Source of the DNA: Clostridia bacterium
GTDB taxonomy: Bacteria; Bacillota; Clostridia; TANB77; CAG-508
DNA: 64,000 nt
Direction: 5' to 3'
NCBI GenBank assembly: GCA_900752335.1
Contig: CAADUZ010000023.1
Span: 28,927-92,926 of the forward strand
Under the pieces are notes generated by a model, which saw nothing but the letters and a program-made list of their open reading frames with translations, was not told the DNA's origin and ran no database searches. Within the stretch, counting starts at the first letter, position 1. The number at the start of each line of letters is the position of its first letter. Made by a program: the position numbers and the translations under genes. Below, one piece after another: positions 23,938 through 41,873 of this stretch.

Positions 23938-24110
23938 TGAGTAAAATTTCTAAGAGCAGTAGTTATAGTTCTTCAAGTAAAAATAAAAAATTATCTGCAA
24001 GTTCAATTTCGCAAAGAAATAAACATGGATATCGCCCAAATGGAGATAAGTCTAGCGATTGTTCAGCCCCTCCTTTTGGAGGCTCAAGTATACAAAATAA
24101 ATGCAAATAA
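23938..24110 (+). CDS. small Ser-rich hypothetical protein
   Basis: 57 aa starting MSKISKSSSYSSSSKNKK. The ATG is 2 nt after the previous stop. A hairpin AAAAGGTC-aaaa-GACCTTTT follows at 24111-24130. Confidence 0.35.
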
Positions 24111-24127
24111 AAAGGTCAAAAGACCTT

Positions 24128-24269
24128 TTTATTTATGCTTCTTATGTGAAGGCTGTCTTTGAGATAGTGCAGAACCTGCAATGGACTTTGTAGTCTTAGA
24201 AGTTCTTCCATCTTTAAGTGCCTTAGAAGCTTGACTTGCAACTCTTTTTGAAGTTTTTTTACAAGCCAT
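24128..24269 (-). CDS. 46-aa basic hypothetical protein
   Basis: Hand translation gives MACKKTSKRVASQASKALKDGRTSKTTKSIAGSALSQRQPSHKKHK. Strong RBS GAGGTGGTG (rc of 24277-24285). Confidence 0.45.
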
Positions 24270-24410
24270 ATTCATCACCACCTCTCTAGGAAAAAATCCT
24301 TCTCCATTAATTCATTCCTATTATGGTGATACATTAAATAATATATCATATTTTTTGTACAAAATCAAATTCTTGTTTGACATTTTCTAAAATTATGATA
24401 TAATAACAAT

Positions 24411-24501
24411 AGGAAATGGAGAAAACCACAAACGTGGCTTACCTCAAGTTAATATGTAAAAACACATCTAACTCGGGAAAGTTTTACAGATGTGTTTTTT
24501 T
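24411..24501 (+). ncRNA. candidate type I antitoxin sRNA 1
   Basis: Promoter TTGACA (24377-24382), 16 nt, TATAAT (24399-24404). Terminator stem AACACATCT/AGATGTGTT (24461-24496) plus a T-run. It is convergent with toxin 1 and shares that terminator hairpin. It contains the anti-SD-like GGCTTACCTC. Confidence 0.55.
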
Positions 24502-24506
24502 GTTGG

Positions 24507-24629
24507 TTATTTGCTCTTACGAAGTAGTATTACAAGTGCTATTATCGAAGTAAGAGCTATGATAGTTATTCCTATTAAAGCATAAAATAATATGTATATA
24601 ATTGTTATTAAATATCCAGTATCTATCAT
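24507..24629 (-). CDS. type I toxin-like 40-aa hydrophobic peptide 1
   Basis: MIDTGYLITIIYILFYALIGITIIALTSIIALVILLRKSK: a single TM with a basic tail. RBS GGAGGTGAGG. The upstream GCCTCC-aataa-GGAGGT hairpin can sequester the SD. Promoter TAGACA-17-TATACT (rc of 24691-24719). Confidence 0.65.
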   Translation of the reverse strand: MIDTGYLITIIYILFYALIGITIIALTSIIALVILLRKSK

Positions 24630-24870
24630 AAGCCTCACCTCCTTATTGGAGGCAAACCACATCTGCTTATTCTCATTTCCTACGCTTTCTAGTATAGTAT
24701 AATTTTACCTATTTGTCTATATAATATATCAAATTTTATTTTTTTCTTTTTAGTTTTCACTTTCTTATACTTCTCAATTAACAATAGTAATTTACTATAT
24801 TGTCCTCTATAAACAACTTAAACTTTGTTTTAGACCTTGGATTTTGTCTTATCAAATGGTTTTTACGGAT

Positions 24871-25066
24871 TTACGCACTCTTTAATTCAAGCCTCAATTT
24901 ATCAGCAATCATTGCGATAAATTCCGAATTTGTTGGCTTACCTTTTGCTGCTGATACTGTGTAGCCGAATATTCTCTCTACTACATCTTGCTTTCCCCTT
25001 CCCCATGCTACTTCTATTGCATGGCGAATTGCGCGTTCTACTCTGCTTGGGGTTGTGTGATATTTT
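24871..25066 (-). pseudogene. displaced 3' fragment of spo0A (spo0A')
   Basis: 24871-25056 aligns without gaps to 41874-42059, with 22 mismatches in 186 nt by hand. It encodes [61 protein letters not shown] plus a stop, 59/61 identical to the intact Spo0A C-terminus. There is no upstream ORF. Confidence 0.9.
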
Positions 25067-25377
25067 ATGTAGAGTTTATGATTGCAAAAATTTGACTAAA
25101 GCAATAAATATTTATAGCTTTTACCTCAATATGTTTATTGCATTGATTGTAATAGAACTTTTTTCGTTTGTCAATTTTATGAACTATACTTTTTATATTT
25201 TTTGTTATGCAAATCAAATTGCTATATACTTATACTTTTAATAATAGTTCAAAAATAAAAATAACATATTTCATTTACTGTTCTATTTCTTCTTTAATAA
25301 ATTATTATTTTAATTTACTTTTGGCTAAGAAATAAAATAAAGAATAAATGAACGATATCATTTATCCTTTATTTTTA

Positions 25378-26352
25378 TTATGATTTATTTCCCATTCCTA
25401 GCAATAAAGCCTGCCCCAAAAGTCCAATCACTTGACTATAAAACCATTGATGTTTATTAAAATGATTCCCTATCCTTTTACAAAGCCCCGTATTCTTAGC
25501 AATGTTTTTAGTTACATTCATATTATCTATGTAATCTTTGACTTCTTCTAATATTTGTTTTAATTCTTCCTTATCTTCGTTTCCCTTTTCTTCTATCTCT
25601 TTTTCTAAATGGTCAATAGAATTGTTTATTGTAACATTTGAATCTGTAATATTTCCCATATTCAAAAATCCTGTATTTGTTATATTTACTAACGGTCTAT
25701 TCATTTTTTCAATCTGCTCCATATATTTTTTCTCCCTTTCAAAATATGTTTTACCTGGATATGTTAATTCAGCACTATAAACTGTGTCAGAAGCCCAAGT
25801 AACATTTATTAATCCATTTTTAATTAGCATACCTATTATGCCTCTATTTAGCTCATCTTCTTCAATTTTATCTGATAAAAAAGTGTCTATATTCTCTTTT
25901 TTTTCATCTTTTATTATTATTTCTTTTAGTAATTCTTTTGCTTGGTCTGTTAATTCTTCAAACAATTCTTTTCTCATTCCTTTCTTTTCAAAATATGATA
26001 GAGCATCAGGTGTTAAAATTATATGCCAATCTCCACCTATATATAGTTTTCCAAAAGATATATATCCAAATAGTTTTAATCTTTCTATTATACCTTCAAT
26101 ATTGAAGTCCATATATTCAGGGAACTCATTACAATTTCCTGTAATTTGCATTATTTTACCATTATTACTTTTCGACAATAATATTAATAACATTGTTTCT
26201 TCTGTTTCCGATAATAATATCATTTTATTTGCTCCTACCAGATTATTTTTTTCTATTATTTCTTTTTGTTTATTTTGTATAATCTTGCCTATACTCTTAT
26301 TTAAATCTTTTTCAAAATTTTTTAAATTGCATTTAATTTTAATCTTTGCCAT
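25378..26352 (-). CDS. hypothetical protein with C-terminal hydrophobic helix
   Basis: 324 aa. No family recognised. C-terminus reads WFYSQVIGLLGQALLLGMG. It lies between the two type I toxin modules. Confidence 0.5.
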   Translation of the reverse strand: MAKIKIKCNLKNFEKDLNKSIGKIIQNKQKEIIEKNNLVGANKMILLSETEETMLLILLSKSNNGKIMQITGNCNEFPEYMDFNIEGIIERLKLFGYISFGKLYIGGDWHIILTPDALSYFEKKGMRKELFEELTDQAKELLKEIIIKDEKKENIDTFLSDKIEEDELNRGIIGMLIKNGLINVTWASDTVYSAELTYPGKTYFEREKKYMEQIEKMNRPLVNITNTGFLNMGNITDSNVTINNSIDHLEKEIEEKGNEDKEELKQILEEVKDYIDNMNVTKNIAKNTGLCKRIGNHFNKHQWFYSQVIGLLGQALLLGMGNKS

Positions 26353-26420
26353 ATAATACCCTTTCTAAATTATTTCTGCAAAAAGTTGACAATTTAATTA
26401 CAAATGTGTATAATAAGTAT

Positions 26421-26506
26421 AGGAAATGAAAGCCACTTTGTGGTTGCCGAAAAAAGATTTAAAAATAAACCATTTACTCGACCAAAGCAGAATGGTTTAT
26501 TTTTTA
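26421..26506 (+). ncRNA. candidate type I antitoxin sRNA 2
   Basis: Promoter TTGACA (26386-26391), 17 nt, TATAAT (26409-26414). Terminator AATAAACCATT/AATGGTTTATT (26464-26501) plus a T-run that overlaps the toxin 2 stop codon. Confidence 0.55.
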
Positions 26507-26620
26507 TTGCCTATGTAGTAAATACAAGATGATGAATACTAAGGCAAAATTTATGATAGTTACACCTACTAATCCAAAGAAAAGTAGTTTGATGATTAAC
26601 AATAATGCTGATTCTACCAT
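26504..26620 (-). CDS. type I toxin-like 38-aa hydrophobic peptide 2
   Basis: MVESALLLIIKLLFFGLVGVTIINFALVFIILYLLHRQ. RBS GGGGGTGGTG. A paralogue of toxin 1, sharing the G-(I/V)-T-I-I core. The 5' UTR is about 115 nt and starts ATAGGAAATGAGAATAAGC. Confidence 0.65.
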   Translation of the reverse strand: MVESALLLIIKLLFFGLVGVTIINFALVFIILYLLHRQ

Positions 26621-27395
26621 AGCACCACCCCCAGTTGTCAGTCTCACAAGCTAAAAGCTGTGGAAATAATATGTATACATCAAAGAGTAAAAGGTGGCAA
26701 CACACTCCGCTTATTCTCATTTCCTATGCTATCTACTATACTATATTTTTTTACAAAAAACAAGCGAACATAGTAAAGTTTTACAAATAATTTTATATGT
26801 TGTCCGTTTCTATTTCTTAATATTTTATGCTAGTTCAAAAATTAAGATAAGGTGCTTTATCTTGGGTTTATTTATAATTAAATAAACTTATATATATTAA
26901 AATAAATTCTTATTATTGGCTCAAATATAGAATAAATGAACTATGTATATAAAATTCTAATTTTATTATGCTAATAAGCTCAATGTTTTCAATAGTTCAC
27001 GGCGTCTACTTTTTAAAATGTTGTAAATTATTATATAAATTTTCATGTGATTATTTTTCTTTTCTAATATTATTATAATTTTTTGAAAGAGAAGGCTGGA
27101 GTATCTGATATAAGCCAAGTTCACTAATTCGCATAATTGCTTTTAAGGCATTTAAAATCGTGCAGACATAAAGTTATATTCCTAAAAAATAAAAAAGCCT
27201 TAAAATGGATTCTAGCAGGTCTGTTTGCTATTCACTAACTATAATTTTTGTGTTACAATTTAGAAAAGTTATAAAATATAATTTTATCTGTTTTTAATTA
27301 AATTTTATATAGTTATTTGAGTAATTTTTATATTATAAAAAACAAAAACGGTCTTTTTCTATCCTAAAAAAGAGCCGTTTTACAAATATTATATT

Positions 27396-28133
27396 TTAAT
27401 TCAAATATTCGCTAATGTCTTTACCTCCAGATATGTTTTTAAATAGTTCTTTTACACATATCTTAAATTCATCTCCTAATTTGTCAAATGCATCAAAAAA
27501 CTCGTTTATATCACTCCTTTTTTGTGTAGCTTTGTCAAATGCATCTAAATATCTATCTAAATTATTGAAATTAGTTTTATTTTTTTCCTCTAATCCTTCA
27601 ATAGCTGAAATTTCAGTCTTAAAAATTTCGACTGCCTCTTTTGTATTATTATAATATTTTCTGAGTTTTTTAAAATCTATATCATTAATTCTATATGTAT
27701 ATGTTGCAATTTCAATCTCGTCCATGTAACCGCCAAAATTATCATTTATTTTTTGATATAAATTAGTGGAAATCTTTTCTTCCATTTCATTTATTTGCTC
27801 TTGCTTAATTTTTTGCTTTTCTATTTCTTTTTGTTCTTGTATTTGTCTTTCTCTTTCTTCTTCAATAATTTCCTTAACCGTTTTTTCTAGTAATAGTGAA
27901 TTATCATTTCTCTTAATTGCTTCATTATACAATTTTTTTTCCTCATCAGTTAGCTTACTATTTGTTACTTTTTCATTGGTTTCATCTCCTGTATATTTTT
28001 GATTTAATACATTACTGAAAAATAAAAAAATACATATAATTGCTATTATAAATATAATGCTAAATATAGTTACTAATGTTATAATAAATTTATTTTTCTT
28101 TTTTCTCTCCATTTTATTTTCAATTCCTTTCAA
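27396..28133 (-). CDS. membrane-anchored coiled-coil protein
   Basis: 245 aa with an N-terminal TM and a Glu/Lys-rich coiled coil. No family recognised. Confidence 0.5.
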   Translation of the reverse strand: MKGIENKMERKKKNKFIITLVTIFSIIFIIAIICIFLFFSNVLNQKYTGDETNEKVTNSKLTDEEKKLYNEAIKRNDNSLLLEKTVKEIIEEERERQIQEQKEIEKQKIKQEQINEMEEKISTNLYQKINDNFGGYMDEIEIATYTYRINDIDFKKLRKYYNNTKEAVEIFKTEISAIEGLEEKNKTNFNNLDRYLDAFDKATQKRSDINEFFDAFDKLGDEFKICVKELFKNISGGKDISEYLN

Positions 28134-28134
28134 T

Positions 28135-28440
28135 TCATTTTATAATTTTTTTCTTAGCCTCAATTCTTAAAATCTTACTTTTTACAATAATTACTATATC
28201 TATAAAAATAATTGGTAATATAATAAAAAATATCCATACCATATTATTGAATTCGAATGCACTTTGAAAATCTAAAATCAACAAACTCTTTACTGCTCTT
28301 GTCATTCCACACAGAGGACAGCCAGTACATTGAAAATGACTAAAAAAGGATAAATACAAAAATGCAATAGTTAATATCAAATAGCTTATTAATCGTGCAT
28401 TTTGGAAATCATAATCATTTATTGTCTCTTTTATTTTCAT
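28135..28440 (-). CDS. DUF2752-like membrane protein
   Basis: 101 aa with the CTGCPLCGMTRA motif characteristic of DUF2752, plus two TMs. Confidence 0.6.
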   Translation of the reverse strand: MKIKETINDYDFQNARLISYLILTIAFLYLSFFSHFQCTGCPLCGMTRAVKSLLILDFQSAFEFNNMVWIFFIILPIIFIDIVIIVKSKILRIEAKKKIIK

Positions 28441-28819
28441 ATTCTACTTTACTCGCTAAATTTATAAAACTTCCTATTAAACTTAGTAATGGGAAAATCA
28501 TAATTATAATATAACAACATACTGTTGTAGATAAAAATAATACACATAATATAAATAATATTATTGTACTTAACAATATAATTGATACTTTGTATAATTT
28601 TGCTACTTCTTTAAATATTTTTCCTTTTAAAAATAATATAGATATAATAATTATTATTGAGCTATTTAGTATTACAATTATTGCATCTACAATAATTTCA
28701 ATATTAGTACGAATGTCATTACCTACAAATTGGTAATATAAAATAAAAATAATCATCGAAAATATTGTTAAAATATTTCCTATTAAACAAAGGAATGTTC
28801 CTGTTTTACCTGATTTCAT
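28415..28819 (-). CDS. polytopic membrane protein
   Basis: About 134 aa from ATG 28819 (AAGGAGAG upstream), with four predicted TMs. Confidence 0.5.
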   Translation of the reverse strand: MKSGKTGTFLCLIGNILTIFSMIIFILYYQFVGNDIRTNIEIIVDAIIVILNSSIIIIISILFLKGKIFKEVAKLYKVSIILLSTIILFILCVLFLSTTVCCYIIIMIFPLLSLIGSFINLASKVEYENKRDNK

Positions 28820-28832
28820 ATCTAATCTCTCC

Positions 28833-29282
28833 TTATTCATTTATAAATCTAGTTATTCTCGCAGAATTAAAAGAAAGTGTGTGTTTATCATTTTCAACTT
28901 CTGTAGCAATTTCTTTTAATAAATCCGAAGTGTAATCAAGATAACCAACAGATAAATCTGTTGCCTCAGTATTATATAAATTTCCTATATTAGTATCAAT
29001 TTTATTATCATGCAATTCCCAAACTTCTTTAAAAGTATGGTCTTTTCCTTGTTCATCTTCAAAGCTATACTGTATAATACAATAGTCACTCTCTTTGTTT
29101 ATTTTTACACTTATAATCTTAAAGCTATCTTTATATTTTAAATATTTATTTCTTTCTTGTGCCCAATCTATAATAATTTTCTCATCATCACTAGGGGTAT
29201 TGTAAAAATAAAGGCTAACTCCTAATGATGTTAGAACTACTATTATTAGAGAAATTATCCAAATTATTTTAATTTTTTTCAA
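28833..29282 (-). CDS. membrane-anchored hypothetical protein
   Basis: 149 aa. TTG start with AGGAGGA 7 nt upstream. N-terminal TM. Confidence 0.5.
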   Translation of the reverse strand: MKKIKIIWIISLIIVVLTSLGVSLYFYNTPSDDEKIIIDWAQERNKYLKYKDSFKIISVKINKESDYCIIQYSFEDEQGKDHTFKEVWELHDNKIDTNIGNLYNTEATDLSVGYLDYTSDLLKEIATEVENDKHTLSFNSARITRFINE

Positions 29283-29294
29283 TTTATTTTCCTC

Positions 29295-29876
29295 CTAGTT
29301 TTCTTGATATATAATAGAGTCTAATATATCATTAAATTCTTTTATTGGCTCTCCCTTTGGATATGTCACACCCATATAAATTATGCCTGCTCTATTTTGT
29401 ATAATATAAATATCTTCTGTAAATGCTCCTGTTTCATACTCTAATAATGTGCAATTAATAGGTTGGATTTTAGATATAGTTGTTTCTTCTCTTTTTATAA
29501 AAGTACTATTATTAAAAGATTCTCTTGTTTGTATATAATTTTGAATTTCTACTTCTTTATTATATGAGATATTTGGACTATCAGGTATATTACAAAAAAA
29601 TTCACTCCCTGCAATTTTAGGATATTCTAAATTAATCTCAGAATAATTGCCTATTGTTGGCTTTTTCAATTCTTTACTATATTTAAACTCAATTCCATAA
29701 GCCTCATTTTTATATGTTTCTAAATTAGAGTTTTCTTCTTCTGCAACATTCCCCACGTTATTATTATTGATTCCATTGTCTTCTTTTTCTCTATTTTGTA
29801 ACATTAAGACTACTGCAAAAATAACAATTATTAATATAACCAGTAAAACTATATATTTCATAATTTTATTTTTCAT
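29295..29876 (-). CDS. membrane-anchored hypothetical protein
   Basis: 193 aa with an N-terminal TM. AAGGAG lies upstream of the start. Confidence 0.5.
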   Translation of the reverse strand: MKNKIMKYIVLLVILIIVIFAVVLMLQNREKEDNGINNNNVGNVAEEENSNLETYKNEAYGIEFKYSKELKKPTIGNYSEINLEYPKIAGSEFFCNIPDSPNISYNKEVEIQNYIQTRESFNNSTFIKREETTISKIQPINCTLLEYETGAFTEDIYIIQNRAGIIYMGVTYPKGEPIKEFNDILDSIIYQEN

Positions 29877-29968
29877 TTTTTAAACATCTCCTTTTTAAAA
29901 TTAAATAATTATATTTTTTCCATTTTCTTTACTAATTTTTAATTCAATTTCTTTTATATTCTTTTGTT

Positions 29969-30265
29969 TCAAATATTTTTTAACATCTTTTTCTTAATTG
30001 ATTCAAATTCATTTTGCGTAATTGTTCCATTATCTGCTAATTTTTTGAACCTTTCTAGTTCGGCAGAATTATATAATATTTTATTTTCCTTTGTTTTATC
30101 TTTTTGTAATGCAACTATTAATAATCCTATTAAACCTAAGATAAATCCACACCAGAATCCAGTCCAATAAGAGTAACCTTTGTTATCATTAATACTTCCG
30201 CTAATTAGTCCAAAAACAAGTCCTATAAATAAATAACTAAAAATGATTATCCAAAAAATGTCCAT
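29969..30265 (-). CDS. SHOCT-domain membrane protein
   Basis: 98 aa with two TMs and a C-terminal ELERFKKLADNGTITQNEFESIKKKML (SHOCT-type short C-terminal domain). GGGAGGTG lies upstream. Confidence 0.6.
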   Translation of the reverse strand: MDIFWIIIFSYLFIGLVFGLISGSINDNKGYSYWTGFWCGFILGLIGLLIVALQKDKTKENKILYNSAELERFKKLADNGTITQNEFESIKKKMLKNI

Positions 30266-30482
30266 TTTTTAACACCTCCCTTTTATTTTCATTGCAATTT
30301 TGATTCAAACAATACTTACAATAACTTGTGCCGAAATATAGTTTGTTTTCACACTTTTTCTCTGTTTTACCCTCTAAATTTTCCACTTCCAGTCTTAAAT
30401 ATTCTTTGGCTGTATATTTGTCATCACTTAACAAACAACTTCTTATTCTATTTAAAACCTCTAAAAATCTTGTGTTTTCCAT
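30237..30482 (-). CDS. Cys-rich hypothetical protein
   Basis: 81 aa from ATG 30482 (AAAGGAG upstream). Contains CKYCLNQNC. Confidence 0.4.
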   Translation of the reverse strand: MENTRFLEVLNRIRSCLLSDDKYTAKEYLRLEVENLEGKTEKKCENKLYFGTSYCKYCLNQNCNENKREVLKNGHFLDNHF

Positions 30483-30602
30483 TCTTTTGCTCCTTTTCAA
30501 ATTCGTGAAAATTATATCATTTTTCACTCTCACTTGCAAGTGCTACCACCCATAAGTGTTATATAGTAAAATACCTAAAAATAAGCAATATGAGGTGGTA
30601 CA

Positions 30603-30822
30603 ATGATTAAATTAAATGTAGAAAAATTATTGAAGGAACAAAATAAAACTAAAACTTGGTTATGCGACCAGTTAGATATATCATTTTATAATCTTAATAA
30701 AGCCATAAAACCACGGTAAGAAAAGTATTTCATATAAGTATTTAGAAGGTTTTTGTAGAGCTTTAAATTGCAGTTTTAATGATTTAATGTCAATAACCGA
30801 TGACGACAAAGAAGTGAATTAA
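30603..30822 (+). pseudogene. small HTH (XRE/YozG-like) regulator, frameshifted
   Basis: MIKLNVEKLLKEQNKTKTWLCDQLDISFYNLNKAIKPR-stop. It continues in another frame as GKKSISYKYLEGFCRALNCSFNDLMSITDDDKEVN. One extra base lies near 30713-30717. Confidence 0.65.
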
Positions 30823-31055
30823 TTCTTTCCATAAAGAACATTGTTCATTTCTTTGTTTATTTTTTTCTCTATTTTCTTTGCTTTTTCGCTATCTTTTCCA
30901 TATTTTTCTTGTATCTTTTTGTATTCAACCATTAAATAATAAATTTTATTATTTAGAATTTTATCTATATTTTCTATTGCTCTATCTGTATTTCCATACC
31001 TTAAATCCGCTTCAATTTTTTCTAAAATATCTATTGCTATCAAATTTTCTATCAT
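30819..31055 (-). CDS. hypothetical 78-aa protein
   Basis: ORF with a plausible RBS (AAAGAGGGG upstream). No family recognised. Confidence 0.4.
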   Translation of the reverse strand: MIENLIAIDILEKIEADLRYGNTDRAIENIDKILNNKIYYLMVEYKKIQEKYGKDSEKAKKIEKKINKEMNNVLYGKN

Positions 31056-31170
31056 TTTTTACCCCTCTTTTTACAACGTATTACCTATCGTCTAATCTGT
31101 GCAACGATTATATACCAAAACTATTGTAAAATCAATTCATATTTAATAAAAAATTGGAGATAATACATTT

Positions 31171-31431
31171 ATGAATAATGGAAATAAATACAATGGAAAA
31201 TTAAATGTAATTGGTTTAAAAATAAAATATTATAGAGAGAAAAATGGTTGGTCTTTATCTGAATTATCAAATAGGCTAATGTTGCAAGGTATAGATATCC
31301 CTAAATCGTCATTGCAACGAATGGAAACTGGAGGTAGAGCAATACGAGATTATGAACTTGCTGGATTCTCAAAAGTTTTCAAGGTTTCTCCAAATATTCT
31401 TTTAAAGGATTTCTTGGAAGAAATCGAATAA
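31171..31431 (+). CDS. XRE-family HTH regulator
   Basis: 86 aa: IGLKIKYYREKNGWSLSELSNRLMLQGIDIPKSSLQRMETG, a typical HTH_3. Confidence 0.7.
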   Translation: MNNGNKYNGKLNVIGLKIKYYREKNGWSLSELSNRLMLQGIDIPKSSLQRMETGGRAIRDYELAGFSKVFKVSPNILLKDFLEEIE

Positions 31432-31574
31432 AGATTCTACTGTATTTATATAGTAGTTTCTTTTTTTGGCTAGGAGAGTACAGGTGCATATACCAAATAT
31501 ACTAAAAACTTCTTATTGGATAACTTAAAATAGGGGGGGACAAAAAGAACTAGCGATGTGCTAGCCCTCATTTT

Positions 31575-31841
31575 TTACTGCTGTATATCGATTTCAACTT
31601 CTTTGTATTTAATTAATATGTGCCATTTATTTATTATTTTAATTTTACTTACATTTTGTAAATTAACTATAATGTTTTTGTAATCTCCGTTTGAAAACAT
31701 TATTTTTCTTTTGTCTATTATAATTTTTGCATTTTCTAAAAATAAAGTAGTATTAATTATTCCATTTATTGCTATTTGTATATTAACATTTTTATAATGT
31801 TTTAAAAGTATGTACTTTAACTTATTATATTGAATTAACAT
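31575..31841 (-). CDS. hypothetical 88-aa protein
   Basis: ORF overlapping the upstream gene by 7 nt. A CTAGC/GCTAG hairpin terminator follows at about 31546-31575. Confidence 0.4.
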   Translation of the reverse strand: MLIQYNKLKYILLKHYKNVNIQIAINGIINTTLFLENAKIIIDKRKIMFSNGDYKNIIVNLQNVSKIKIINKWHILIKYKEVEIDIQQ

Positions 31842-32017
31842 CTTTTTATCCCTCTTTCCTTTAGTATAGCATAAAAGCTCGTCTTTCCTATCTTTAATGT
31901 CGAATATGTCTCAACTCCTGACTGTTCTCCATTCAAATACTTTTTCAATTCTTCTTGTAGTTTAGTTTCATTTATTACTAGTTTTGGTCTACCGACTTTG
32001 TTTTTTACCTTTTCCAT
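31835..32017 (-). CDS. small HTH DNA-binding protein (Hin/excisionase-like)
   Basis: 60 aa: GRPKLVINE...IGKTSFYAILKERG. It lies immediately downstream of the recombinase. Confidence 0.5.
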   Translation of the reverse strand: MEKVKNKVGRPKLVINETKLQEELKKYLNGEQSGVETYSTLKIGKTSFYAILKERGIKRC

Positions 32018-32036
32018 TTCTTTTTTTACCTCTTTT

Positions 32037-32885
32037 CTATAAAATATTAATTCTTTCTTTTATTTCTTCTTGTGAAGGATTTACATATATTTCTGTTGTT
32101 CTTGTACTTGCATGTCCTCCTATCATTGCTATTTCAATAAGCGAAAAGCCTTTTTTTTGCATATTAGTAAAGCAATAATGCCTTCCTCCGTGAGGTGTCA
32201 AAACACTCGAATATTTATTGAATATCTGATTTATTCTGCTACGACTTACTTTTTTTGACTGTCTACTGACAAACAAATATGAGCTGTCGCTTTTTCTTTC
32301 TTTTAGATATTCTTTTATTGCCTCCACGACTTTGTCGTTCATAAAAACTGTTCTAACTTTTCCGCCTTTTCCGTTTCTTACTATTATTTCTTTACTTGTC
32401 AAGTCAAAATCTGTCATTTGAATATTTAAGCACTCACTAATACGCAAACCTACATAAACAATTATAGTTACTATTGCATAGTCTCTTTTTGTCTCATTTT
32501 CTAATATCTGTTGTCTAAATCTTTCTATGTCTGATGCGTTTACCTTACACGGATTTATATGTTGCTTTTGTATTTTAATAAAATCGTTATCATTTAAAAC
32601 AATGTCTTGTTGTATTTCACTATCTACTAAATATTTGTTATATTTCATTATTGCTGATAAGTTAGCATTAATTGTTTCCGCTTTTAGTGTTTGTCCTTTT
32701 TTCGTTTTCTTTATATTTCGTAAGTAGCTTTTGTAATCTAATACATTAGGTCTATATATTTTTTTCAATTCCTCGCCTGTTGTATCTTTATACCATTTTT
32801 TAAAATTTTCTATGTTTTGTATGTAAGTTTGTATTGTGTTTTGTGATTTGTTTTGTTCTGATAAATAATTTTTAAAATCTTCCAT
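32037..32885 (-). CDS. tyrosine recombinase (XerC/D-like), second recombinase of the element
   Basis: 282 aa from ATG 32885 (AAAGGAGTGG upstream). Catalytic set visible: GLRISE (R), GKGGKVR (K), HGGRH (H-x-x-R), GGHAS (H), TEIY (Y). Confidence 0.8.
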   Translation of the reverse strand: MEDFKNYLSEQNKSQNTIQTYIQNIENFKKWYKDTTGEELKKIYRPNVLDYKSYLRNIKKTKKGQTLKAETINANLSAIMKYNKYLVDSEIQQDIVLNDNDFIKIQKQHINPCKVNASDIERFRQQILENETKRDYAIVTIIVYVGLRISECLNIQMTDFDLTSKEIIVRNGKGGKVRTVFMNDKVVEAIKEYLKERKSDSSYLFVSRQSKKVSRSRINQIFNKYSSVLTPHGGRHYCFTNMQKKGFSLIEIAMIGGHASTRTTEIYVNPSQEEIKERINIL

Positions 32886-33077
32886 TCGTTCCACTCCTTT
32901 CTGTGTAATTATGTTTAACTTGTTTTTTATACTTTTATATGTAATTATGCTTAACTCAATATATGAATTATACAAGTTTTAGCATTCTAGCTCAACATAA
33001 TTGACATTATGATAAACTCATTTTATTTTTTGGTTTAGGCTACTATATAATGTATAAGAAAACATAGTAGCCTTATT

Positions 33078-33140
33078 TTATCTTTTGCCCATTCCGCCTT
33101 TTAAAAGTAAAATAATAATATATATAATTATTAACGCCAT
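33078..33140 (-). CDS. 20-aa hydrophobic micropeptide (tentative)
   Basis: MALIIIYIIILLLKGGMGKR. GGAGG lies 7 nt upstream of the ATG, 18 nt after the previous stop. The hairpin AGGCTACTAT...ATAGTAGCCT (33040-33076) follows. Confidence 0.35.
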   Translation of the reverse strand: MALIIIYIIILLLKGGMGKR

Positions 33141-33158
33141 TCTTTTTCCTCCGTTTCT

Positions 33159-33410
33159 TTAATTTTCTTCTGTATCATTTAATATCATACTAACTTCGTC
33201 ATTTATTTCATCGTCAAAAATTGTGCTATGTCTTTTTAATATTTTTTTGATTTCTTCTAGTTCATTGTCACAAATGTAATTATTAAATTCAAAAAGTCCA
33301 TATCTTACATAAATATATAATGCAACATCAAATTCGTCATCATAAGAAGTTTGCCAAATATCATCTAACTTATTTATTATTGTTTCAATTCTTTTTCTTT
33401 CCATTTTCAA
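33159..33410 (-). CDS. acidic hypothetical 83-aa protein
   Basis: ORF in an operon with 33426-33965. No family recognised. Confidence 0.45.
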   Translation of the reverse strand: MKMERKRIETIINKLDDIWQTSYDDEFDVALYIYVRYGLFEFNNYICDNELEEIKKILKRHSTIFDDEINDEVSMILNDTEEN

Positions 33411-33425
33411 AAATTTCCTTTCTTA

Positions 33426-33965
33426 TTAATAATAGCAAGTCATTAAGTCATCTTGTCCATTCCATAAACTACAAAAGCCAAAACTATCAATATTTATGTA
33501 TAATGTCCCATTTTGTAATCCATTCACTCGTTTTACTGCTCCTTTTTCATTATCGACTATAAAATGGCTATTCTTCAAAAATGAGTTTTTTACTGGTCTA
33601 ACCTTGTAACTATCTAAGCCTGTTGTTTCTGCGATTTCGTATGCAATTTCTTTTATTACTACTTGTTTTGTGCCTTTTAAGGCTACCACCTGAAAATAGT
33701 TTGCGTTTGTTTGTTCGTAGCCCCAAGAAAAGTGAAAAATGTCGCCAACTTTTACACCCAAATAATTTTTTTGTTCTTTTTTTGCTATTTCTGTGTAGCT
33801 TAATTTCCTGTACCAACATTTTTTAGTATTGTGCCACCTGTAGCCATTCTTTTTTAATTCTTTTATTATGTCATATTGTGGCTTTTGCTCAAAGTATAAT
33901 TCCTCCCCCTGTTTTTCTTCATTTGTAATAATTTTGCAATTTTTTTTGATTTCTTCTAATTGCAT
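33426..33965 (-). CDS. hypothetical protein
   Basis: 179 aa from ATG 33965 (AGGTAGGTG upstream). Contains KELKKNGYRWHNTKKCWYR. The candidate promoter TTGACA-17-TAACAT lies at rc 34153-34181. Confidence 0.5.
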   Translation of the reverse strand: MQLEEIKKNCKIITNEEKQGEELYFEQKPQYDIIKELKKNGYRWHNTKKCWYRKLSYTEIAKKEQKNYLGVKVGDIFHFSWGYEQTNANYFQVVALKGTKQVVIKEIAYEIAETTGLDSYKVRPVKNSFLKNSHFIVDNEKGAVKRVNGLQNGTLYINIDSFGFCSLWNGQDDLMTCYY

Positions 33966-35495
33966 AATAAAAACACCTACCTTTCTATAAAATATTTTCA
34001 AAATACCTATTGAAAGATAAGTGCAAAATGTGTTATTATATAAATGTAAATATCTTTCAAAGGTATTTCGATGTAGCTTTTATATATGTTTGAAGTTTGG
34101 CGACCGATAACATATATAAAAGTATTTTTTTGTTCTTTATGAACTATAAAGATGTTACCATATTTCTCAAAAAATGTCAATACGAAAATCAAATATTTCC
34201 TTACAGCCTCAACGATTTTAAGTTTTGAACATTGTCAAATTAAAGCACAAGTTTTCGTATATAATATCGCAAATTTTCTGTTATCCAGCGAATTTGAAAT
34301 TTAAGTGTTTTTTATTATTATGCAAGCAAAAATAAGTATATATTACATATATTATTACTTTTAATATTAATATCATATAGCAAATCAAATAAGTATTATT
34401 TAGTACATTTATGAAATCATTATTTTAAAACAAAAAGATAATAAAGTCATAATAATATAAGTCTTTTATTTTTAATGTTCTTGCAACTTTTAAAGTTTAA
34501 ATCTGAAAATCATAAACAGGCAATAGAATATAAGTATTTCAACTATTGGCTGTTTAAAAGTTAGAAAAATAAATAGAATCTTCATATCTTAATTGTTTTA
34601 ATATTCTTTTTCTTCTTCATTTATTACCGTTGTTAGTTTTTAGCATATTTATAACACTATTTTTTGCATTTATATCTGTAGAATAATAAAAAAATTAAAT
34701 ACGCATTGTATAGTGGAATATCAAGTTCATAGAAATAGAATAACTATAATGTAGCAAAGCCATTATAGTATTTCATAGTATAATTGGCTCTTGCAGAAAC
34801 TCAAAAACTCTACAGTATTTTGACATTTAGTACAATACCACTTTTTTGAATTTTTTGCACATAGATTCTATAAACTACATATAATTATAAAAAAACATAG
34901 TAGTATATATTACTGAAGGTTTTTATTTTTCACAAATGTAGCTCTTATATAAATACGATTTACTATTATAAAAACAGTGTTTCAATTCTTATAAATTATT
35001 ACTTTCTAACAACACAACAAACTCCATATAACTCTTGCTAATTCCATTTTTTATACTTTTAAATTGATTTACAAAAGTTAGTAGTATTATTTAATACAAA
35101 TGCTACAGCAATTGTTTTTGGTTACAATAACAGTATTACAATTATTTTTATTATTTATCTACTTTTCAATAACTCTTTTTAGGCAAATCAACAAAAACAA
35201 AGTATAATAAAAATTATCGTTCATAAAATGTGTAAAAGTCTATAAGTATTTTGGATATTATTGCAGATGTAGATTCCAATGTTATATGCTAAATTTCAAT
35301 TTTTGAACTATAATAAAAGTTGTCTTATTATTGCAAATACTTTAACTACAAATAATATTATATTTTATAAATTTTAAAACACACACATTAAAAAATTCCA
35401 TTTTTCAACTTTTTGTAAATTTAAAAAAATGAAAATTTAAAAATATAGGAGCTAGTCATAATAAATATGTACTAAATAGCCCCTATATTTTAATA

Positions 35496-37058
35496 TCATA
35501 AATCTTTACTTTCCATAGCTGTTTCTTCACTGTTCTTTGCTTCTAATTCTTCTTCATTTTTACTAGTTACATCAATCTCTAAATCCTTTACAAATTCTGC
35601 CTGCTCTGCTGGAAAACCACTAAACAAATGGACTGTACAATTATATCTAAGTAGTCTTGCCCTTCCAACAGCTTGTTCTATTTCAGATTGTAAAAAATAT
35701 GTAATGATTTTTTGATAGTGTTCATTAGAATAAGTTGTAATTTTAAATGAATATTCATCATTTTCTATTCTTTGATAATGTGGTCTATCCTCTGTTATTA
35801 TCTCGCCATATAAAGAATACAAGAAAAACTTATAGACAATATCATTTAAGTAAGGCATACCTACTACAACTATGTCTTGTCCTTCTAAATTATTCAAGCC
35901 TTCGATTGCTCCAAAATTATAATCTCTTTCATTGCAAAATTTCTTAAATGTGATTAAAGGTACATTGGGATATTTTTTCCTTATTTCTTCTAATATTTGT
36001 GGAGAATTATCTAAACAAGTTCTACTATAAGAGTATGAGTAATCCTGTAATAGCTTGCCCATATATTTATCATGTGGTATTTTTATATTTTCTATGTCTC
36101 TATCTTCAAAATACTTAATATAAAAATCCTTTTCCATCGTGGCAGATAAAACATAAGTAGTCATAAATGGTATATCTCTACAAATCAAACAATGTACTAA
36201 ATCATCATCATTATAGCTGTTTTTCATTTTTTCTTTATTGGGATTATATTTATAAATTGCACTAATAGAAAGCACATCAAAAATGTTGTAAATATCTTGG
36301 TGTAAATTTGTAACTTCTTCCTCTATATCTTCAATTTCTTCTTGACTCATATATTTTTGATAAATTGGCTCTACTGCATTTATCTGTTTGTAAGGTGCTT
36401 TTAAGATTATATCTATCTTTTTTTGTAATTTATCTTTATAATGATTTTCTAATATATTACAAGTTTTTCTTAATTTAGCTAAACTATATGTTTTTACCTT
36501 TATACATTCCCTCAAAATATCTTCATCAATTATCAATTTATGTGTATAAACTAGGCACCAATGTAGATAAAATAATCTAGCCCAAGTAGTTACAATATGT
36601 CCTTCAAAGTGATTTACTGTTTCATTTTGTACTAAATAATAGGTTATGTTATTTATATCTGCATTAATTTTATTTAACTTAGCCTCATTTGTTTCCTTTT
36701 CAGCTTGTTCTTCCAATTCTTTAACTGCATTATTTAAAAATTCTTTTCTTTTTTCAACAGCACCAATTTGCATTAAATAAAAATATTCTTCTTTTATTTC
36801 TTGGTCATTGATTTCAGGAATTTCAGGAGTTTCCATTATATCTGTTACTCCCATATTAACTAAATCATTATAAACTTGATGTTTTAATTCATTAGTTGGA
36901 AGTGCTATTATGAATTTATCCCAAAAAGCATTTTTTATAACTTTTTCATATGCACTTGTTTTTCCTAAAGAAGTTTGAGCACTTACTAGTGTCAACAAAT
37001 GATTTTTACGTTGATGTTTTAAGTACTTTTCGTAGTTTTCTTTATTTGCCTCTATCAC
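35496..37058 (-). CDS. SF2 (DEAD/DEAH-like) helicase
   Basis: 520 aa. Motif I SAQTSLGKTS, motif II IIDEDI, motif III LSATM, motif VI QAVGRARL. Confidence 0.7.
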   Translation of the reverse strand: MIEANKENYEKYLKHQRKNHLLTLVSAQTSLGKTSAYEKVIKNAFWDKFIIALPTNELKHQVYNDLVNMGVTDIMETPEIPEINDQEIKEEYFYLMQIGAVEKRKEFLNNAVKELEEQAEKETNEAKLNKINADINNITYYLVQNETVNHFEGHIVTTWARLFYLHWCLVYTHKLIIDEDILRECIKVKTYSLAKLRKTCNILENHYKDKLQKKIDIILKAPYKQINAVEPIYQKYMSQEEIEDIEEEVTNLHQDIYNIFDVLSISAIYKYNPNKEKMKNSYNDDDLVHCLICRDIPFMTTYVLSATMEKDFYIKYFEDRDIENIKIPHDKYMGKLLQDYSYSYSRTCLDNSPQILEEIRKKYPNVPLITFKKFCNERDYNFGAIEGLNNLEGQDIVVVGMPYLNDIVYKFFLYSLYGEIITEDRPHYQRIENDEYSFKITTYSNEHYQKIITYFLQSEIEQAVGRARLLRYNCTVHLFSGFPAEQAEFVKDLEIDVTSKNEEELEAKNSEETAMESKDL

Positions 37059-37607
37059 TTAAAGCACCCCTTTTTTTAATGCATTCAGTAACTGTTCATA
37101 TCCTTTGTCCTTGTCTAAGTAGTTCACACTATTATTGTTTAGCTTGTAAATTTTATTTTTTGGGACAACTGTGTTAACTATGTTACGATAATGTTTGCAT
37201 TCTGCCTCAAATGGGCAAAATTTAGAACATTGCATTGCACTATAATTGCATTTTTTTGCATATTCTATTTGCATTTCCCATTTGTTATCTTTTTCTTCGT
37301 TGTACAAGTTATCATATTTTTCTATAGTCTCTAATATTCTTTTTTTGCCTCCCTCAAAATACATTAAATTGAGCGATAAGCCAAAAAGTTCTTGATGATG
37401 TAATCGCCTTTCGCCTGTTACAAATATCTTGAATAGTCGGCATTTTTCTATAACATTGTTCCAATCGTTTATCTTTACTTTTGGTAATTCAGTTTTGGTA
37501 TTGGTTGTTAAATACTTTTTTGTTTCTTCTTTTTCAGATACTTCTGTTTTTGTTTTCTTCTTTTTTACCAATGTATATTTATCTGACATTGAAATTTCAT
37601 AGAACAT
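37059..37607 (-). CDS. hypothetical protein, possible primase C-terminal-type helper
   Basis: 182 aa, abutting the helicase start (stop 37059, helicase start 37058). Cys cluster CSKFCPFEAECKH. The assignment is speculative. Confidence 0.4.
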   Translation of the reverse strand: MFYEISMSDKYTLVKKKKTKTEVSEKEETKKYLTTNTKTELPKVKINDWNNVIEKCRLFKIFVTGERRLHHQELFGLSLNLMYFEGGKKRILETIEKYDNLYNEEKDNKWEMQIEYAKKCNYSAMQCSKFCPFEAECKHYRNIVNTVVPKNKIYKLNNNSVNYLDKDKGYEQLLNALKKGVL

Positions 37608-37629
37608 TTTTTCGCCATTTTGTACGAAA

Positions 37630-38751
37630 TTACCGAACTACTATAATATAATAATATAATGATTCGGTGTTTTCGTATGCTTTATCATTCTGAAAAACTT
37701 TTTGACATACATTTCCCCTTACACAAAAATGCTGTTTTGAAAACATCTCCATATTATATGTATGCTCTTGTTCTTTTCTTAACTGTTCCTCTTGTTCTTC
37801 TGATATTTCAACTTTTCTTACGTGGAAAATGCCGTTTAGAAGATTAATCCCTGTTTTTTTTGAAAACTCTTGCATATTTTTGGAAAAATTTGCACTATCT
37901 TTCTTTTTTAAGTATTTTTCGAAACATCTAAAATATTTATCTAATTCTATACTTTTCCCAAAATGAGGATTTTTTTCTTCAATTGGTGTATTACTTCCAT
38001 GAAATTGTCTGTTCACATTTGTACAGTTACTGTCAAAATATTCAGGAAACATCGCTTGCAATAATAATATTATTCCTTGAGCTAAATCCCAACTAAAAAT
38101 AGGAACATCTGTCTTGAATATTAATCTAAATCTTTCTCCTTTTGTAGGGTCTGAAAAGGTTTTATATGCAAATAACACATTTAAGTCTAAATCAATTATT
38201 CTTTGCTTTACTTCTTTGTACATTTCGCCATATGGTGGAGTAATATCATTTTTATTTCTATCTTGTTTATGGTCTACATCAAGCCCAAAAGTTGACATTG
38301 AAATAAAATATTCTTTTGTATTTTTTACATTTCCTCCAGTTTCTAGTATTTGAATTAACCAATTAGGTGTTCCTAAAGCTATCTCACATAATCTATCCCA
38401 TGCAAAAAAAGTTTCTATTGCCATTTCATCTGACGTACATTTTCCATATGTTTTATGGTAATAATCTAAATCGAGAAAAATACACCCACAAAAAGTTTTG
38501 CCTTTGCTTGCGACTTCTTCCTCCAATTCATAAGTTTTTAGTAGTGTTGGCTGTAATTTCAAGCCATATGTAATAATACCATCTTCATTTACAGGTTTTT
38601 CAAAACGTTTTTTAGGAAATATTGAAACATACATTCCTCTTTCTGGTATTTCATCAGCTTGTCTAATAGGGGTATCATATAGCTCATATATTCTTTTTCT
38701 ACTTTCTTTTTCCTTTCTCATTATCTCTATCTCTTTTTCCCAATAGCCCAT
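37630..38751 (-). CDS. putative primase-polymerase (AEP-like) replication protein
   Basis: 373 aa. CIFLDLDY resembles AEP motif I (DxD), and GLDVDH and ERFRLIF are further candidate motifs. Its position between the Cro-like gene and the helicase matches a replication module. Family call is from memory only. Confidence 0.45.
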   Translation of the reverse strand: MGYWEKEIEIMRKEKESRKRIYELYDTPIRQADEIPERGMYVSIFPKKRFEKPVNEDGIITYGLKLQPTLLKTYELEEEVASKGKTFCGCIFLDLDYYHKTYGKCTSDEMAIETFFAWDRLCEIALGTPNWLIQILETGGNVKNTKEYFISMSTFGLDVDHKQDRNKNDITPPYGEMYKEVKQRIIDLDLNVLFAYKTFSDPTKGERFRLIFKTDVPIFSWDLAQGIILLLQAMFPEYFDSNCTNVNRQFHGSNTPIEEKNPHFGKSIELDKYFRCFEKYLKKKDSANFSKNMQEFSKKTGINLLNGIFHVRKVEISEEQEEQLRKEQEHTYNMEMFSKQHFCVRGNVCQKVFQNDKAYENTESLYYYIIVVR

Positions 38752-38830
38752 TGTTAATTCCTCCTGATATTTTCTGTATTTGGGGAAATGGCTTATTTTA
38801 AGCCATTTTTTTAGCCTCTAAAAAAGATTC

Positions 38831-39310: not shown

Positions 39311-39337
39311 GTATCTGTATTTGGAGGTGATTGAAAA

Positions 39338-41846: not shown

Positions 41847-41873
41847 TTACTCTCTCAAGCATTATGCCATATC

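Follow-up and report, generated by a model that had tools for sequence, protein, structure and literature searches.

A probable type I toxin-antitoxin-like module beside spo0A in a gut clostridial genome, and its apparently undescribed family

[quoted passage not shown] In hok/sok of plasmid R1 the fbi element keeps the full-length hok mRNA inert, in SprA1/SprA1AS of Staphylococcus aureus it is the 5' domain of SprA1AS that pairs with the Shine-Dalgarno sequence (SD) and the start codon, and in txpA/RatA and bsrG/SR4 of Bacillus subtilis the two RNAs overlap by roughly 75-120 nt. The par locus of plasmid pAD1 of Enterococcus faecalis (Fst, RNA I/RNA II) has convergent promoters and a shared bidirectional terminator (PMC7472228). 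SprA1 (PepA1) and SprA1AS share a 3' overlap that leaves the ORF free, and they interact through a region outside this overlap; in the txpA/RatA and bsrG/SR4 pairs the overlap extends into the toxin ORF (PMC8594479). Of the latter pairs, txpA lies on skin and bsrG on SPbeta (PMC6563280). Finally, the type I toxins of C. difficile (CD2517.1/RCd8 and others) have, according to a review, no sequence homology to the type I toxins of other bacteria (PMC6563280).

The module considered here (module 1, Table 1) lies in a window of 64,000 nucleotides, the whole stretch of clostridial DNA that was analysed. An earlier note, made from the letters of this DNA, had described a 40-codon ORF with a strong SD, a promoter and a 5' hairpin able to occlude the SD, facing a convergent plus-strand unit of ~90 nt with a near-consensus promoter; both transcripts were said to end in one hairpin with U-runs in both directions (24461-24496), and hence to overlap by at least 36 nt. 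This anatomy is indeed present at the coordinates given. The plus-strand promoter turns out to be perfect, with a TG extension, the plus-strand unit is matched by a covariance model, and the hairpin is slightly longer than had been said, with an A-run ahead and a T-run behind, although the mRNA direction reads just 5 U (a simple terminator scan with a loop limit of 8 nt missed it because its loop is longer). With RNA boundaries set from promoter and terminator positions, the predicted overlap is ~45 nt (about 24457-24501) and ends 6 nt before the toxin stop codon (24507-24509), so that the sRNA, with a predicted end at ~24501, does not reach the ORF.

This last point bears on the comparison with txpA/RatA and bsrG/SR4, which the earlier note took as the matching layout and which we do not retain. 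Module 1 has in common with them convergent toxin and sRNA genes with a 3' overlap and, through module 2, which sits on an integrative element, an association with mobile DNA; however, its overlap is confined to the terminator and excludes the ORF, and its toxin matches neither PF16935 (Hol_Tox), the TxpA/BsrG family, nor any other Pfam or NCBIfam entry. With an sRNA that stays clear of the ORF, the module is arranged more like par and SprA1/SprA1AS. As in par, the promoters converge, the bidirectional terminator is the sole overlap and lies outside the ORF, an intramolecular 5' stem-loop hides the SD (a prediction in module 1), the sRNA is short with a strong promoter, and the peptide is small, with a single transmembrane segment (TM) and a charged tail. 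Unlike Fst, this peptide has no PXXXG(C) motif, no PF13955 match and no proline, and module 1 has no Rfam match. Moreover, par has direct repeats (DRa/DRb) and an sRNA complementary to the toxin translation start, whereas our modules have inverted repeats and RNAs with identical 5' sequences; across the family the sRNA 5' region is no more complementary to the translation start than expected by chance, an SD complement being confined to the subgroup of module 1. This complement, of 10 nt in the sRNA tail, recalls SprA1AS, as does the 3' overlap outside the ORF, but there is no sequence relation and the SD contact is a predicted one, limited to that subgroup. With hok/sok the modules may share a toxin mRNA whose 5' end complements its own 3' end (a predicted fold-back of modest ensemble probability); Sok, however, is antisense to the 5' leader, the phylum is another one, and the module has no mok-like leader ORF.

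Scans of the six toxin types found across the family against Pfam, NCBIfam and PHROGs gave nothing at or near the curated cut-offs (for six representative toxins Pfam gave no match even at E <= 10), and homologous peptides in databases carry a hypothetical annotation only, without a Pfam domain. No Rfam model matched the window at gathering thresholds, and relaxing the cut-off to E <= 10 for 24300-24800 yielded nothing above noise (at most 20 bits). Our literature search found no paper describing this module family.

Table 1. Features of module 1, of the paralogous module 2 and of the neighbouring spo0A remnant (positions in the window)
Feature	Position	Strand	Remarks
Cassette of module 1			~340 bp, just downstream of spo0A; 40-residue membrane peptide and convergent 91-nt antisense RNA
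sRNA promoter, TTGACA-16-TG-n-TATAAT	24377..24404	+	12/12, TG extension; -10 ends 5 nt before leader
Antisense sRNA, ~91 nt (predicted)	about 24410/24411-24501	+	Covariance-model match 24410-24501, 78.7 bits, E = 3.4e-11
sRNA parts, 5' to 3'		+	Single-stranded leader UAGGAAAUGGAG, hairpin H1 (24424-24440), tail GGCUUACCUC (24436-24445), linker, terminator
Bidirectional intrinsic terminator	24458..24499	both directions	Common to both RNAs, core of the RNA overlap
Toxin promoter, TAGACA-17-TATACT	24691..24719	-	10/12 consensus score; -10 box ends 8 nt before leader
Predicted toxin mRNA, ~227 nt	24457..24683	-	Ends placed from promoter and terminator positions
Leader TAGGAAATGAGAATAAGC, mRNA 5' end	24665..24682	-	Predicted single-stranded
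5' box and anti-SD AGAUGUGGUUUGCCUCC	24648..24664	-	GCCUCC pairs with SD
GCAGAUGUG		-	Opens with the last two leader bases (24665-24666); complements 5' arm of the mRNA's own terminator
Shine-Dalgarno region GGAGGTGAGG	24633..24642	-	In 5' stem-loop
Candidate toxin ORF, type A1, 40 aa, single TM	24507..24629	-	dN/dS 0.48 in type A1 40-mers
Displaced Spo0A C-terminal fragment, aa 209-272	24874..25065	-	tblastn, 95% identity to intact copy
Paralogous module 2, inside mobile element	26386..26760	-	Covariance-model match, 64.9 bits
Module 2 type B toxin	26504-26620	-	
Module 2 sRNA	26420-26505	+	

The product of the candidate toxin ORF is MIDTGYLITIIYILFYALIGITIIALTSIIALVILLRKSK. It has, as had been noted, one hydrophobic span (Kyte-Doolittle means of 1.6-2.6 in a 19-residue window) and a basic tail (RKSK). 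Many database entries start instead at an upstream in-frame ATG, giving 51 residues; we rejected this start on three grounds: it lacks an SD, it falls within the anti-SD box, and the element conserved across toxin types is the SD together with an M(I/V)E start. From relatives and public MAGs we parsed 111 distinct modules, of which 102 keep an intact hydrophobic ORF of 33-40 aa and 93 have this ORF together with a convergent sRNA 265-305 nt apart. The six toxin types are divergent. The dN/dS ratio is 0.23-0.66 in seven of eight type/length groups (0.48 for the type A1 40-mers, to which module 1 belongs by type and length) and 0.90 in the eighth, the six A1 39-mers. The ORF varies least at its second codon position; these substitution patterns indicate that the putative toxin ORF is under purifying selection. 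The loci searched contain 97 intact ORFs. Opposite 95 of them the model detects a convergent sRNA gene, and in one of the two exceptions (locus L109) the sRNA was found by pattern; conversely, three modules retain the sRNA and have lost the ORF. The pairing of the two genes thus appears to be obligate in this family; together with the sRNAs that have outlived their ORF, it lends indirect support to a peptide that would be toxic and an sRNA that would neutralise it.

The sRNA itself is conserved as a structure. The covariance model has 107 matches in 100 sources; compensatory changes occur at 14 of 17 sRNA stem pairs and, in the terminator, at all ten (103 distinct sRNAs), 85.5% of stem cells are paired (33-52% in slid controls), and none of 500 shuffles reached the observed structure score. 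Both hairpins are therefore supported by covariation. RNAalifold, applied to a plain MAFFT alignment of 73 sRNAs, failed to yield a consensus, since this alignment left the terminator classes out of register; the structures were instead taken from per-sequence folds and a model-guided alignment.

Comparison is also what makes the promoters credible. Promoter-like matches are no more frequent in this AT-rich region than in shuffled DNA (10 observed, 8.5 +/- 2.8 in shuffles), so that a lone match, whatever its score, is not significant and the case has to rest on conservation. The sRNA promoters have at least 11 of 12 consensus matches in 73 of 77 modules (mean 11.4/12), with 5 nt between the -10 box and the leader, again in 73 of 77. 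The toxin promoters are weak (mean 9.1/12), and their spacing to the leader is 8 nt in 68 of the 77.

The predicted fold of the toxin mRNA suggests that its translation is restrained in cis. In module 1 the hairpin GCCUCC-AAUAA-GGAGGU is present in the minimum-free-energy folds both of the 5' UTR alone and of the full mRNA, and the SD GGAGGUGAGG would be sequestered in this 5' stem-loop, as the earlier note had anticipated. Predicted folds of all six toxin types have the SD window 80-90% paired with an upstream anti-SD, with SD pairing probabilities of 0.82-0.84 (0.82 in type A1 full-length mRNAs). The sequences involved vary by type, CCUCC:GGAGG versus CCAC(C):GGUGG, and the predicted masking is kept regardless. 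These folds thus predict a 5' UTR that masks the ribosome-binding site in each of the six types.

Whether the sRNA also touches the SD seems to depend on the subgroup. The pairing put forward in the earlier note, between the sRNA tail GGCUUACCUC and GAGGUGAGGC, is found at 9 of 10 positions, one being G-U, and in module 1 the predicted duplex is better than chance (-15.2 kcal/mol, z = -2.4, p ~0.01; RNAduplex, 100 shuffles). Of the 24 type-A1 modules, 7 retain an ACCU(C) motif in the sRNA; a tail with CCUC or ACCU is likewise seen in 7 of these 24, and in none of 53 other modules. Over the whole family the claim does not hold: the mean z of sRNA-SD pairing is about -1, with p <= 0.05 in only about 20% of modules, and sRNA/mRNA 5'-domain pairing (-18.5) is not better than in shuffles (-17.0 +/- 3.6). 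On these controls we rejected the idea that the sRNA 5' domain pairs with the mRNA 5' region or SD throughout the family, so that a second contact of this kind does not characterise the family as a whole.

A feature of another kind is common to the two RNAs. Both begin with a nearly invariant leader of 18 nt, which is present in the modules parsed. Of 401 sampled genomes of the order, 143 have it with at most one mismatch, frequently more than once; a reversed control gave no match. Scanning the source genome for the 9-mer core of the leader told us little, this genome being rich in AT. Ensemble predictions give nucleotides 1-12 of the toxin mRNA leader a pairing probability of 0.07-0.35. Both RNAs also carry the GUGGUUUGCC box, which co-varies identically in sRNA and cognate mRNA (GUUUGCC, GUUGCC, GCUACC, GUUACC or GUUUUGCC) and tracks the terminator class, not the toxin type. 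The 5' end of the toxin mRNA is complementary over 9-17 bp to its own 3' end, co-varying with terminator class, and the duplex of the box with this 3' end is predicted at -15.8 kcal/mol, versus -13.7 with other terminator classes and -9.4 +/- 2.7 in shuffles; the fold-back of the 5' box on the terminator has a probability of 0.13-0.48 in the thermodynamic ensemble. Since the repeats common to toxin and sRNA genes are inverted, they appear in the two RNAs with the same sequence, not with complementary ones, and the sRNA looks as if it had been copied from the mRNA 5' end in inverted orientation. Pairing of the leader AUAAGC with the start-codon region appears in minimum-free-energy folds of types A1, D and E, and is not claimed here because the partner base varies (GCUUAUG, GCGUAUG, GCAUAUG, GCCUAUG) without a compensating change in the leader. 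Hfq was considered as a leader-binding factor and dropped, the source genome having no Hfq gene.

We think that module 1 is probably type I toxin-antitoxin-like, encoded on the chromosome and a member of a family not described before. What we observe is a conserved anatomy, with covariation in the sRNA, an ORF under purifying selection and an obligate toxin-sRNA pairing; from these we infer transcription, toxicity and the mode of repression. Of the type I interpretation in the earlier note, we thus keep the conserved peptide gene, the convergent sRNA and the masking of the SD in cis, but not the B. subtilis analogues. The weak sigma-A-type promoter would give a toxin mRNA of ~227 nt, in whose folded 5' UTR the anti-SD GCCUCC and the leader end would mask the SD and start codon, and the strong near-consensus convergent promoter would give an sRNA of ~91 nt. 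Because both RNAs share the bidirectional terminator, the 3' 45 nt of the sRNA are perfectly complementary to the mRNA 3' end. As happens in par of pAD1, the two terminator stem-loops would form a kissing complex and then zip up into a duplex, and this duplex would be a substrate of RNase III (the source genome has an RNase III gene, 135 bits) and/or lock the mRNA in an untranslatable fold. In the subgroup of module 1, the sRNA tail may in addition contact the SD, as in SprA1AS and RNA II. Against this explanation speak the lack of any match between the peptide and known toxin families, the short run of 5 U at the terminator in the mRNA direction, and the fact that chromosomal type I "toxins", when expressed at their native level, often do no harm.

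The peptide could instead be a small membrane protein with a physiological role (in sporulation or stationary phase, for instance), the antisense RNA tuning its expression and neutralising no poison. Purifying selection on the ORF would suit this idea, and so would the genomic setting. The earlier note had placed module 1 directly downstream of a displaced spo0A, and a Spo0A fragment does lie ~150 nt upstream of the toxin promoter; spo0A is present in ~38 of the fetched loci, with Spo0A proteins 66-87% identical to that of the source genome, and in the one checked (L012) the module begins ~130 nt after the spo0A stop codon, on the same strand. The site beside spo0A thus recurs for these modules, and in the source genome a mobile element has integrated there. 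The family is also mostly chromosomal, and blastn against phage and plasmid collections gave no match for the modules. We nevertheless consider this explanation unlikely. The source genome has three paralogous modules, one of them on a mobile element, copies also occur in tandem arrays (L027, L040), and the six divergent peptide types occupy interchangeable sites, all of which is typical of toxin-antitoxin modules and not of a dedicated sporulation factor; the nearly constant presence of the sRNA opposite intact ORFs argues the same way. Nor are Spo0A boxes enriched in the toxin promoters, where there are no exact ones and 13 sites with one mismatch, against 16.4 +/- 4.1 in shuffles.

Another possibility, to which we give somewhat less credit still, is that the sRNA, instead of being a classical antisense RNA, acts above all by imitating the mRNA 5' end, as a molecular mimic or decoy. 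Having the same leader and box, the two RNAs would compete for a common partner, which could be the 5' arm of the mRNA terminator (in the fold-back) or a leader-binding protein or RNase. The identical leader, the concerted variation of the box and the energy of its duplex with the mRNA 3' end all speak for such competition. But the fold-back has just the limited ensemble probability given above, the identity could stem from gene conversion between inverted repeats, no candidate binding protein was found and Hfq is absent, and the perfect 3' complementarity is already enough for antisense action. As for a chance ORF with hairpins in AT-rich intergenic DNA, forming no functional unit, it is true that short ORFs abound there and that promoter-like sites are as common as in shuffles; this view is refuted by the covariation, the purifying selection and the conservation of the whole cassette in more than 100 copies from 30 of 49 sampled genera, and we give it practically no weight.

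More tentatively, and with real doubt, one may suppose that the antitoxin gene is an inverted paralogue, and its RNA a molecular mimic, of the promoter-proximal region of the toxin gene. The two RNAs open with a common, predicted single-stranded, purine-rich leader and share the box; the mRNA box would fold onto the 5' arm of its own terminator, giving a closed form like that of hok with fbi, and the sRNA terminator would compete for this same arm. The conserved 3-nt offset of the start sites relative to the leader (5 nt from -10 box to leader for the sRNA, 8 nt for the mRNA) would leave the RNAs with different 5'-terminal nucleotides and, as a speculation, with different 5'-end-dependent decay, hence a labile antitoxin and a stable toxin mRNA. 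RppH and RNase J of Bacillus subtilis are the known background to this last idea. If this were true, the leader would be a family-wide handle, by which one factor could control all the copies in a cell.

In conclusion, these modules appear to form a large and so far undescribed family in uncultured gut Clostridia, one that escapes the curated protein and RNA libraries. Their near-invariant leader on both partners, the box copied in the sRNA and its complementarity to the terminator offer a testable model in which inverted duplication of the 5' end of a target gives rise to its antisense regulator, and in which the 5'-3' fold-back of an mRNA is coupled to antisense binding. The covariance model and the leader motif should permit the annotation of such modules in thousands of MAGs.

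Every feature that the earlier note had listed for module 1, a cassette in which a peptide ORF faces a convergent predicted sRNA gene, is found in the sequence (see the table). The ORF product, MIDTGYLITIIYILFYALIGITIIALTSIIALVILLRKSK, has a single hydrophobic span and the tail RKSK. With transcript ends inferred, the predicted sRNA covers about 24411-24501, ending 6 nt short of the toxin stop codon, and the predicted mRNA about 24683-24457; the overlap of the two 3' ends, put at 36 nt or more in that note, comes to about 45 nt. When folded with ViennaRNA, the 92-nt sRNA gives a single-stranded leader, a hairpin, a linker and the terminator (-20.1 kcal/mol), and the mRNA pairs GGAGGU with GCCUCC. 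Promoter-like matches in this AT-rich region are not significant by themselves (10 vs 8.5 +/- 2.8 in shuffles), so the case rests on comparison with other genomes.

Features of module 1 and its surroundings (window coordinates)
Feature	Position	Strand	Remark
Intact spo0A	41874-42692	-	
Displaced copy of the last 64 spo0A codons	24874-25065	-	about 150 nt ahead of the toxin promoter
Toxin promoter TAGACA-17-TATACT	24719..24691	-	
mRNA leader TAGGAAATGAGAATAAGC	24682-24665	-	8 nt past the toxin promoter
5' box and anti-SD AGATGTGGTTTGCCTCC, then loop AATAA	24664-24648	-	
SD GGAGGTGAGG	24642-24633	-	
40-codon ORF	24629-24507	-	ATG at 24629, end at 24507
Terminator hairpin	24458-24499	both RNAs	A-run on one side, T-run on the other
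Small sRNA hairpin, then tail GGCTTACCTC		+	between leader and terminator
sRNA leader TAGGAAATGGAGAA		+	5 nt past the sRNA promoter
sRNA promoter TTGACA-16-TATAAT	24377-24404	+	perfect, with TG extension
Very basic 50-aa ORF MVMNMACKKTSKRVASQASKALKDGRTSKTTK...	24129-24281	-	with SD; directly downstream of the sRNA promoter
Bidirectional terminator	24104-24135		follows the 50-aa ORF

The source genome (1.22 Mb, 29% G+C, 93% complete) has three paralogous modules: module 1, module 2 (26386-26760 of the window) and a third on its contig C35. Module DNA is matched in 50 of 61 relatives, and a 20-nt leader pattern hits at least 120 stretches of sequence in the genome collection; among the leader matches listed, nearly all belong to uncultured gut or rumen Clostridia MAGs (e.g. 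Clostridium sp. CAG:245). Within the order, the 18-nt leader with at most one mismatch is present in 143 of 401 genomes and 30 of the 49 genera sampled, and its reversed control has no match in the same genomes. The fetched loci yielded 111 distinct modules. The ORF, 33-40 aa long, is intact in 102 of them (with a few aberrant calls among these), and 93 modules combine an ORF with a convergent sRNA gene lying 265-305 nt from the leader. Six types of peptide can be told apart (module 1 is A1, module 2 is B), and tandem arrays of three modules mix them, with C and D in locus L027 and B plus two A1 in L040. Searches of phage and plasmid collections gave no DNA similar to the module.

All 75 distinct sRNAs, folded one by one, have the same architecture. 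A covariance model built from 73 sRNAs detects 107 copies in 100 sources, including 24410-24501 (78.7 bits) and 26420-26505 (64.9 bits) in the window. In the model-guided alignment, both partners have changed in 14 of 17 stem pairs, paired cells amount to 85.5% (33-52% when partners are slid by 1-3 columns), and the covariation score is reached by none of 500 shuffles. Fitting the alignment to the model introduces a bias in favour of structure; the helices are nevertheless convincing in view of the slid controls and of how strongly stem sequences differ among the six terminator classes. On this comparative evidence the predicted sRNA gene is real, and nothing similar to it is found in Rfam. 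Its promoter has on average 11.4 matches of 12 (9.1 for the toxin gene) and at least 11 in 73/77 modules (4/77 for the toxin gene); its -10 box is TATAAT in 73/77. The distance from the -10 box to the leader is 5 nt in 73/77 sRNA genes and 8 nt in 68/77 toxin genes. One class of toxin promoters carries a conserved GTTCGCTTG motif at the -35 box or a little upstream of it (many modules, e.g. those of L040, L074, L100 and L027), and another, TAGACAAATAGGTAAAATTATACTATACT, is seen in module 1 and in part of the type B and C modules; promoter classes are combined in mosaic fashion with toxin types and terminator classes.

Judged from its sequence, the peptide ORF is probably translated. Within types, pairwise dN/dS is 0.23-0.66 in seven of eight type/length groups and 0.90 in six A1 39-mers, and the second codon position is the least variable, as expected of a hydrophobic peptide. 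Homologs in a collection of 5.8 billion proteins are unnamed or "hypothetical" and lack a Pfam domain, many being called as 51-aa products from an in-frame upstream ATG without an SD. No family in Pfam, NCBIfam or PHROG matches any of the six types.

The predicted masking of the SD in cis is conserved across the family. In local 5' UTR folds of all six types the 12-nt SD window is 80-90% paired with the upstream anti-SD (mRNA nt ~30-40), and in full-length mRNA ensembles the pairing probability is 0.82-0.84 for the SD and 0.6-0.94 for the AUG. The partners are CCUCC and GGAGG in A1, and CCAC(C) and GGUGG, with a variable internal hairpin, in the other types, a difference which amounts to covariation. 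This stem is the counterpart of the 5'-SL in par RNA I (PMC7472228).

The two predicted RNAs have a common 5' leader (UAGGAAAUGAGAAUAAGC in the mRNA, UAGGAAAUGGAGAA in the sRNA), predicted to be single-stranded in each and more conserved than the coding sequence; since it is an inverted repeat in the DNA, the two RNA leaders are identical rather than complementary. The 5' box of the mRNA is likewise repeated by the 3' arm of the first sRNA hairpin plus the tail, and from one module class to another the two versions vary in step (GUGGUUUGCC, GUGGUUGCC, UGUGUGCUACC, UGUAUGUUACC, GUGGUUUUGCC). In view of this likeness, the sRNA gene resembles an inverted paralogue of the promoter-proximal region of the toxin gene. 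In three places (L146, the second module of L028, and L071) the leader of toxin 5' UTRs of different types shares an insert of about 70 nt, GGAGUAGAGCCUACGAAGAA...GGGUCUAGCCGUAAUAAGC, flanked by a duplicated AUAAGCRG; the insert is perhaps a small mobile insertion or an extra structured domain.

The box also nearly copies the terminator 3' arm (sRNA strand), so that within the mRNA it can form 9-17 bp with the terminator, namely with the 5' arm and some of the loop. The mean pairing energy of the box is -15.8 kcal/mol with its own 3' end and -13.7 with other terminator classes, against -9.4 +/- 2.7 for shuffled boxes with their own 3' end, and it tracks terminator class rather than toxin type. 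These pairings point to a 5'-3' fold-back comparable to fbi in hok mRNA; we give it as a candidate, in view of its modest probability in the mRNA ensemble (only 0.13-0.48).

The pairing of sRNA and SD claimed in the earlier note holds for module 1, where the duplex of GGAGGUGAGGCU with UGGCUUACCUCA has -15.2 kcal/mol (z = -2.4, p ~0.01), but not for the family as a whole (mean z ~-1), in which complementarity of the sRNA 5' domain to the mRNA is not above chance (-18.5 vs -17.0 +/- 3.6). ACCU(C) occupies the contact position in 7/24 A1 modules and 0/53 others, and CCAC is found in the sRNA tail of 8/53 non-A1 modules and 1/24 A1, so that the tail tends to copy the anti-SD of its cognate mRNA. 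Only the interaction through the 3' overlap is shared by all members.

Among the 97 modules of the searched loci whose ORF is intact, the model detects a convergent sRNA in 95, and in one of the other two an sRNA is found by pattern; the ORF has been lost from three modules in which the sRNA persists. The numbers are small, but such an asymmetry would be expected of a toxin and its antitoxin. A toxin-less remnant at L030:1473-1590 has the leader and 5' box GCAGATGTG joined straight to the terminator, the box and a terminator arm forming a local hairpin beside an intact convergent sRNA gene (84 bits).

The intact and displaced spo0A pieces (24871-42069) fit the insertion of a 17-kb element in the 3' end of spo0A. 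About 38 fetched loci contain spo0A (proteins 66-87% identical to that of the source genome) and hold differing toxin types; in L012, the locus checked, the module begins about 130 nt past the spo0A stop on the same strand. The association with spo0A in other loci indicates that module 1 is the resident chromosomal copy and that the type B module 2 was brought by the element. One or two spo0A' fragments occur in other loci too (e.g. L078). Spo0A boxes are not enriched in toxin promoters. The 50-aa basic ORF matches nothing in Pfam or NCBIfam.

A type I toxin-antitoxin-like module that would work like par or SprA1 is the model with the best support. A weakly transcribed mRNA would hide its own ribosome-binding site; an abundant convergent sRNA would first pair with it through the complementary terminator stem-loops, leading to RNase III cleavage and/or locking an inert fold, with an extra direct contact to the SD in the subgroup of module 1. 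The source genome (1.2 Mb) has an RNase III gene (contig C6:41253-41630), and no Hfq gene was detected in it. The analogy with txpA/RatA and bsrG/SR4 drawn in the earlier note is only partly apt, because antitoxins of those types overlap the toxin ORF, according to T1TAdb (PMC8594479), whereas the predicted sRNA of module 1 does not. Tested against Fst, TxpA/BsrG and Rfam families, the module is a member of none, and we found no paper describing this family.

The feature is real and conserved. We regard it as very likely that module 1 is a peptide/antisense-RNA module, and as probable, with somewhat less assurance, that its two products function as a genuine toxin and antitoxin. The family is a so far undescribed variation on an established type of system, and its chief interest lies in the design of common leader and mimic, and in the spo0A-linked site.
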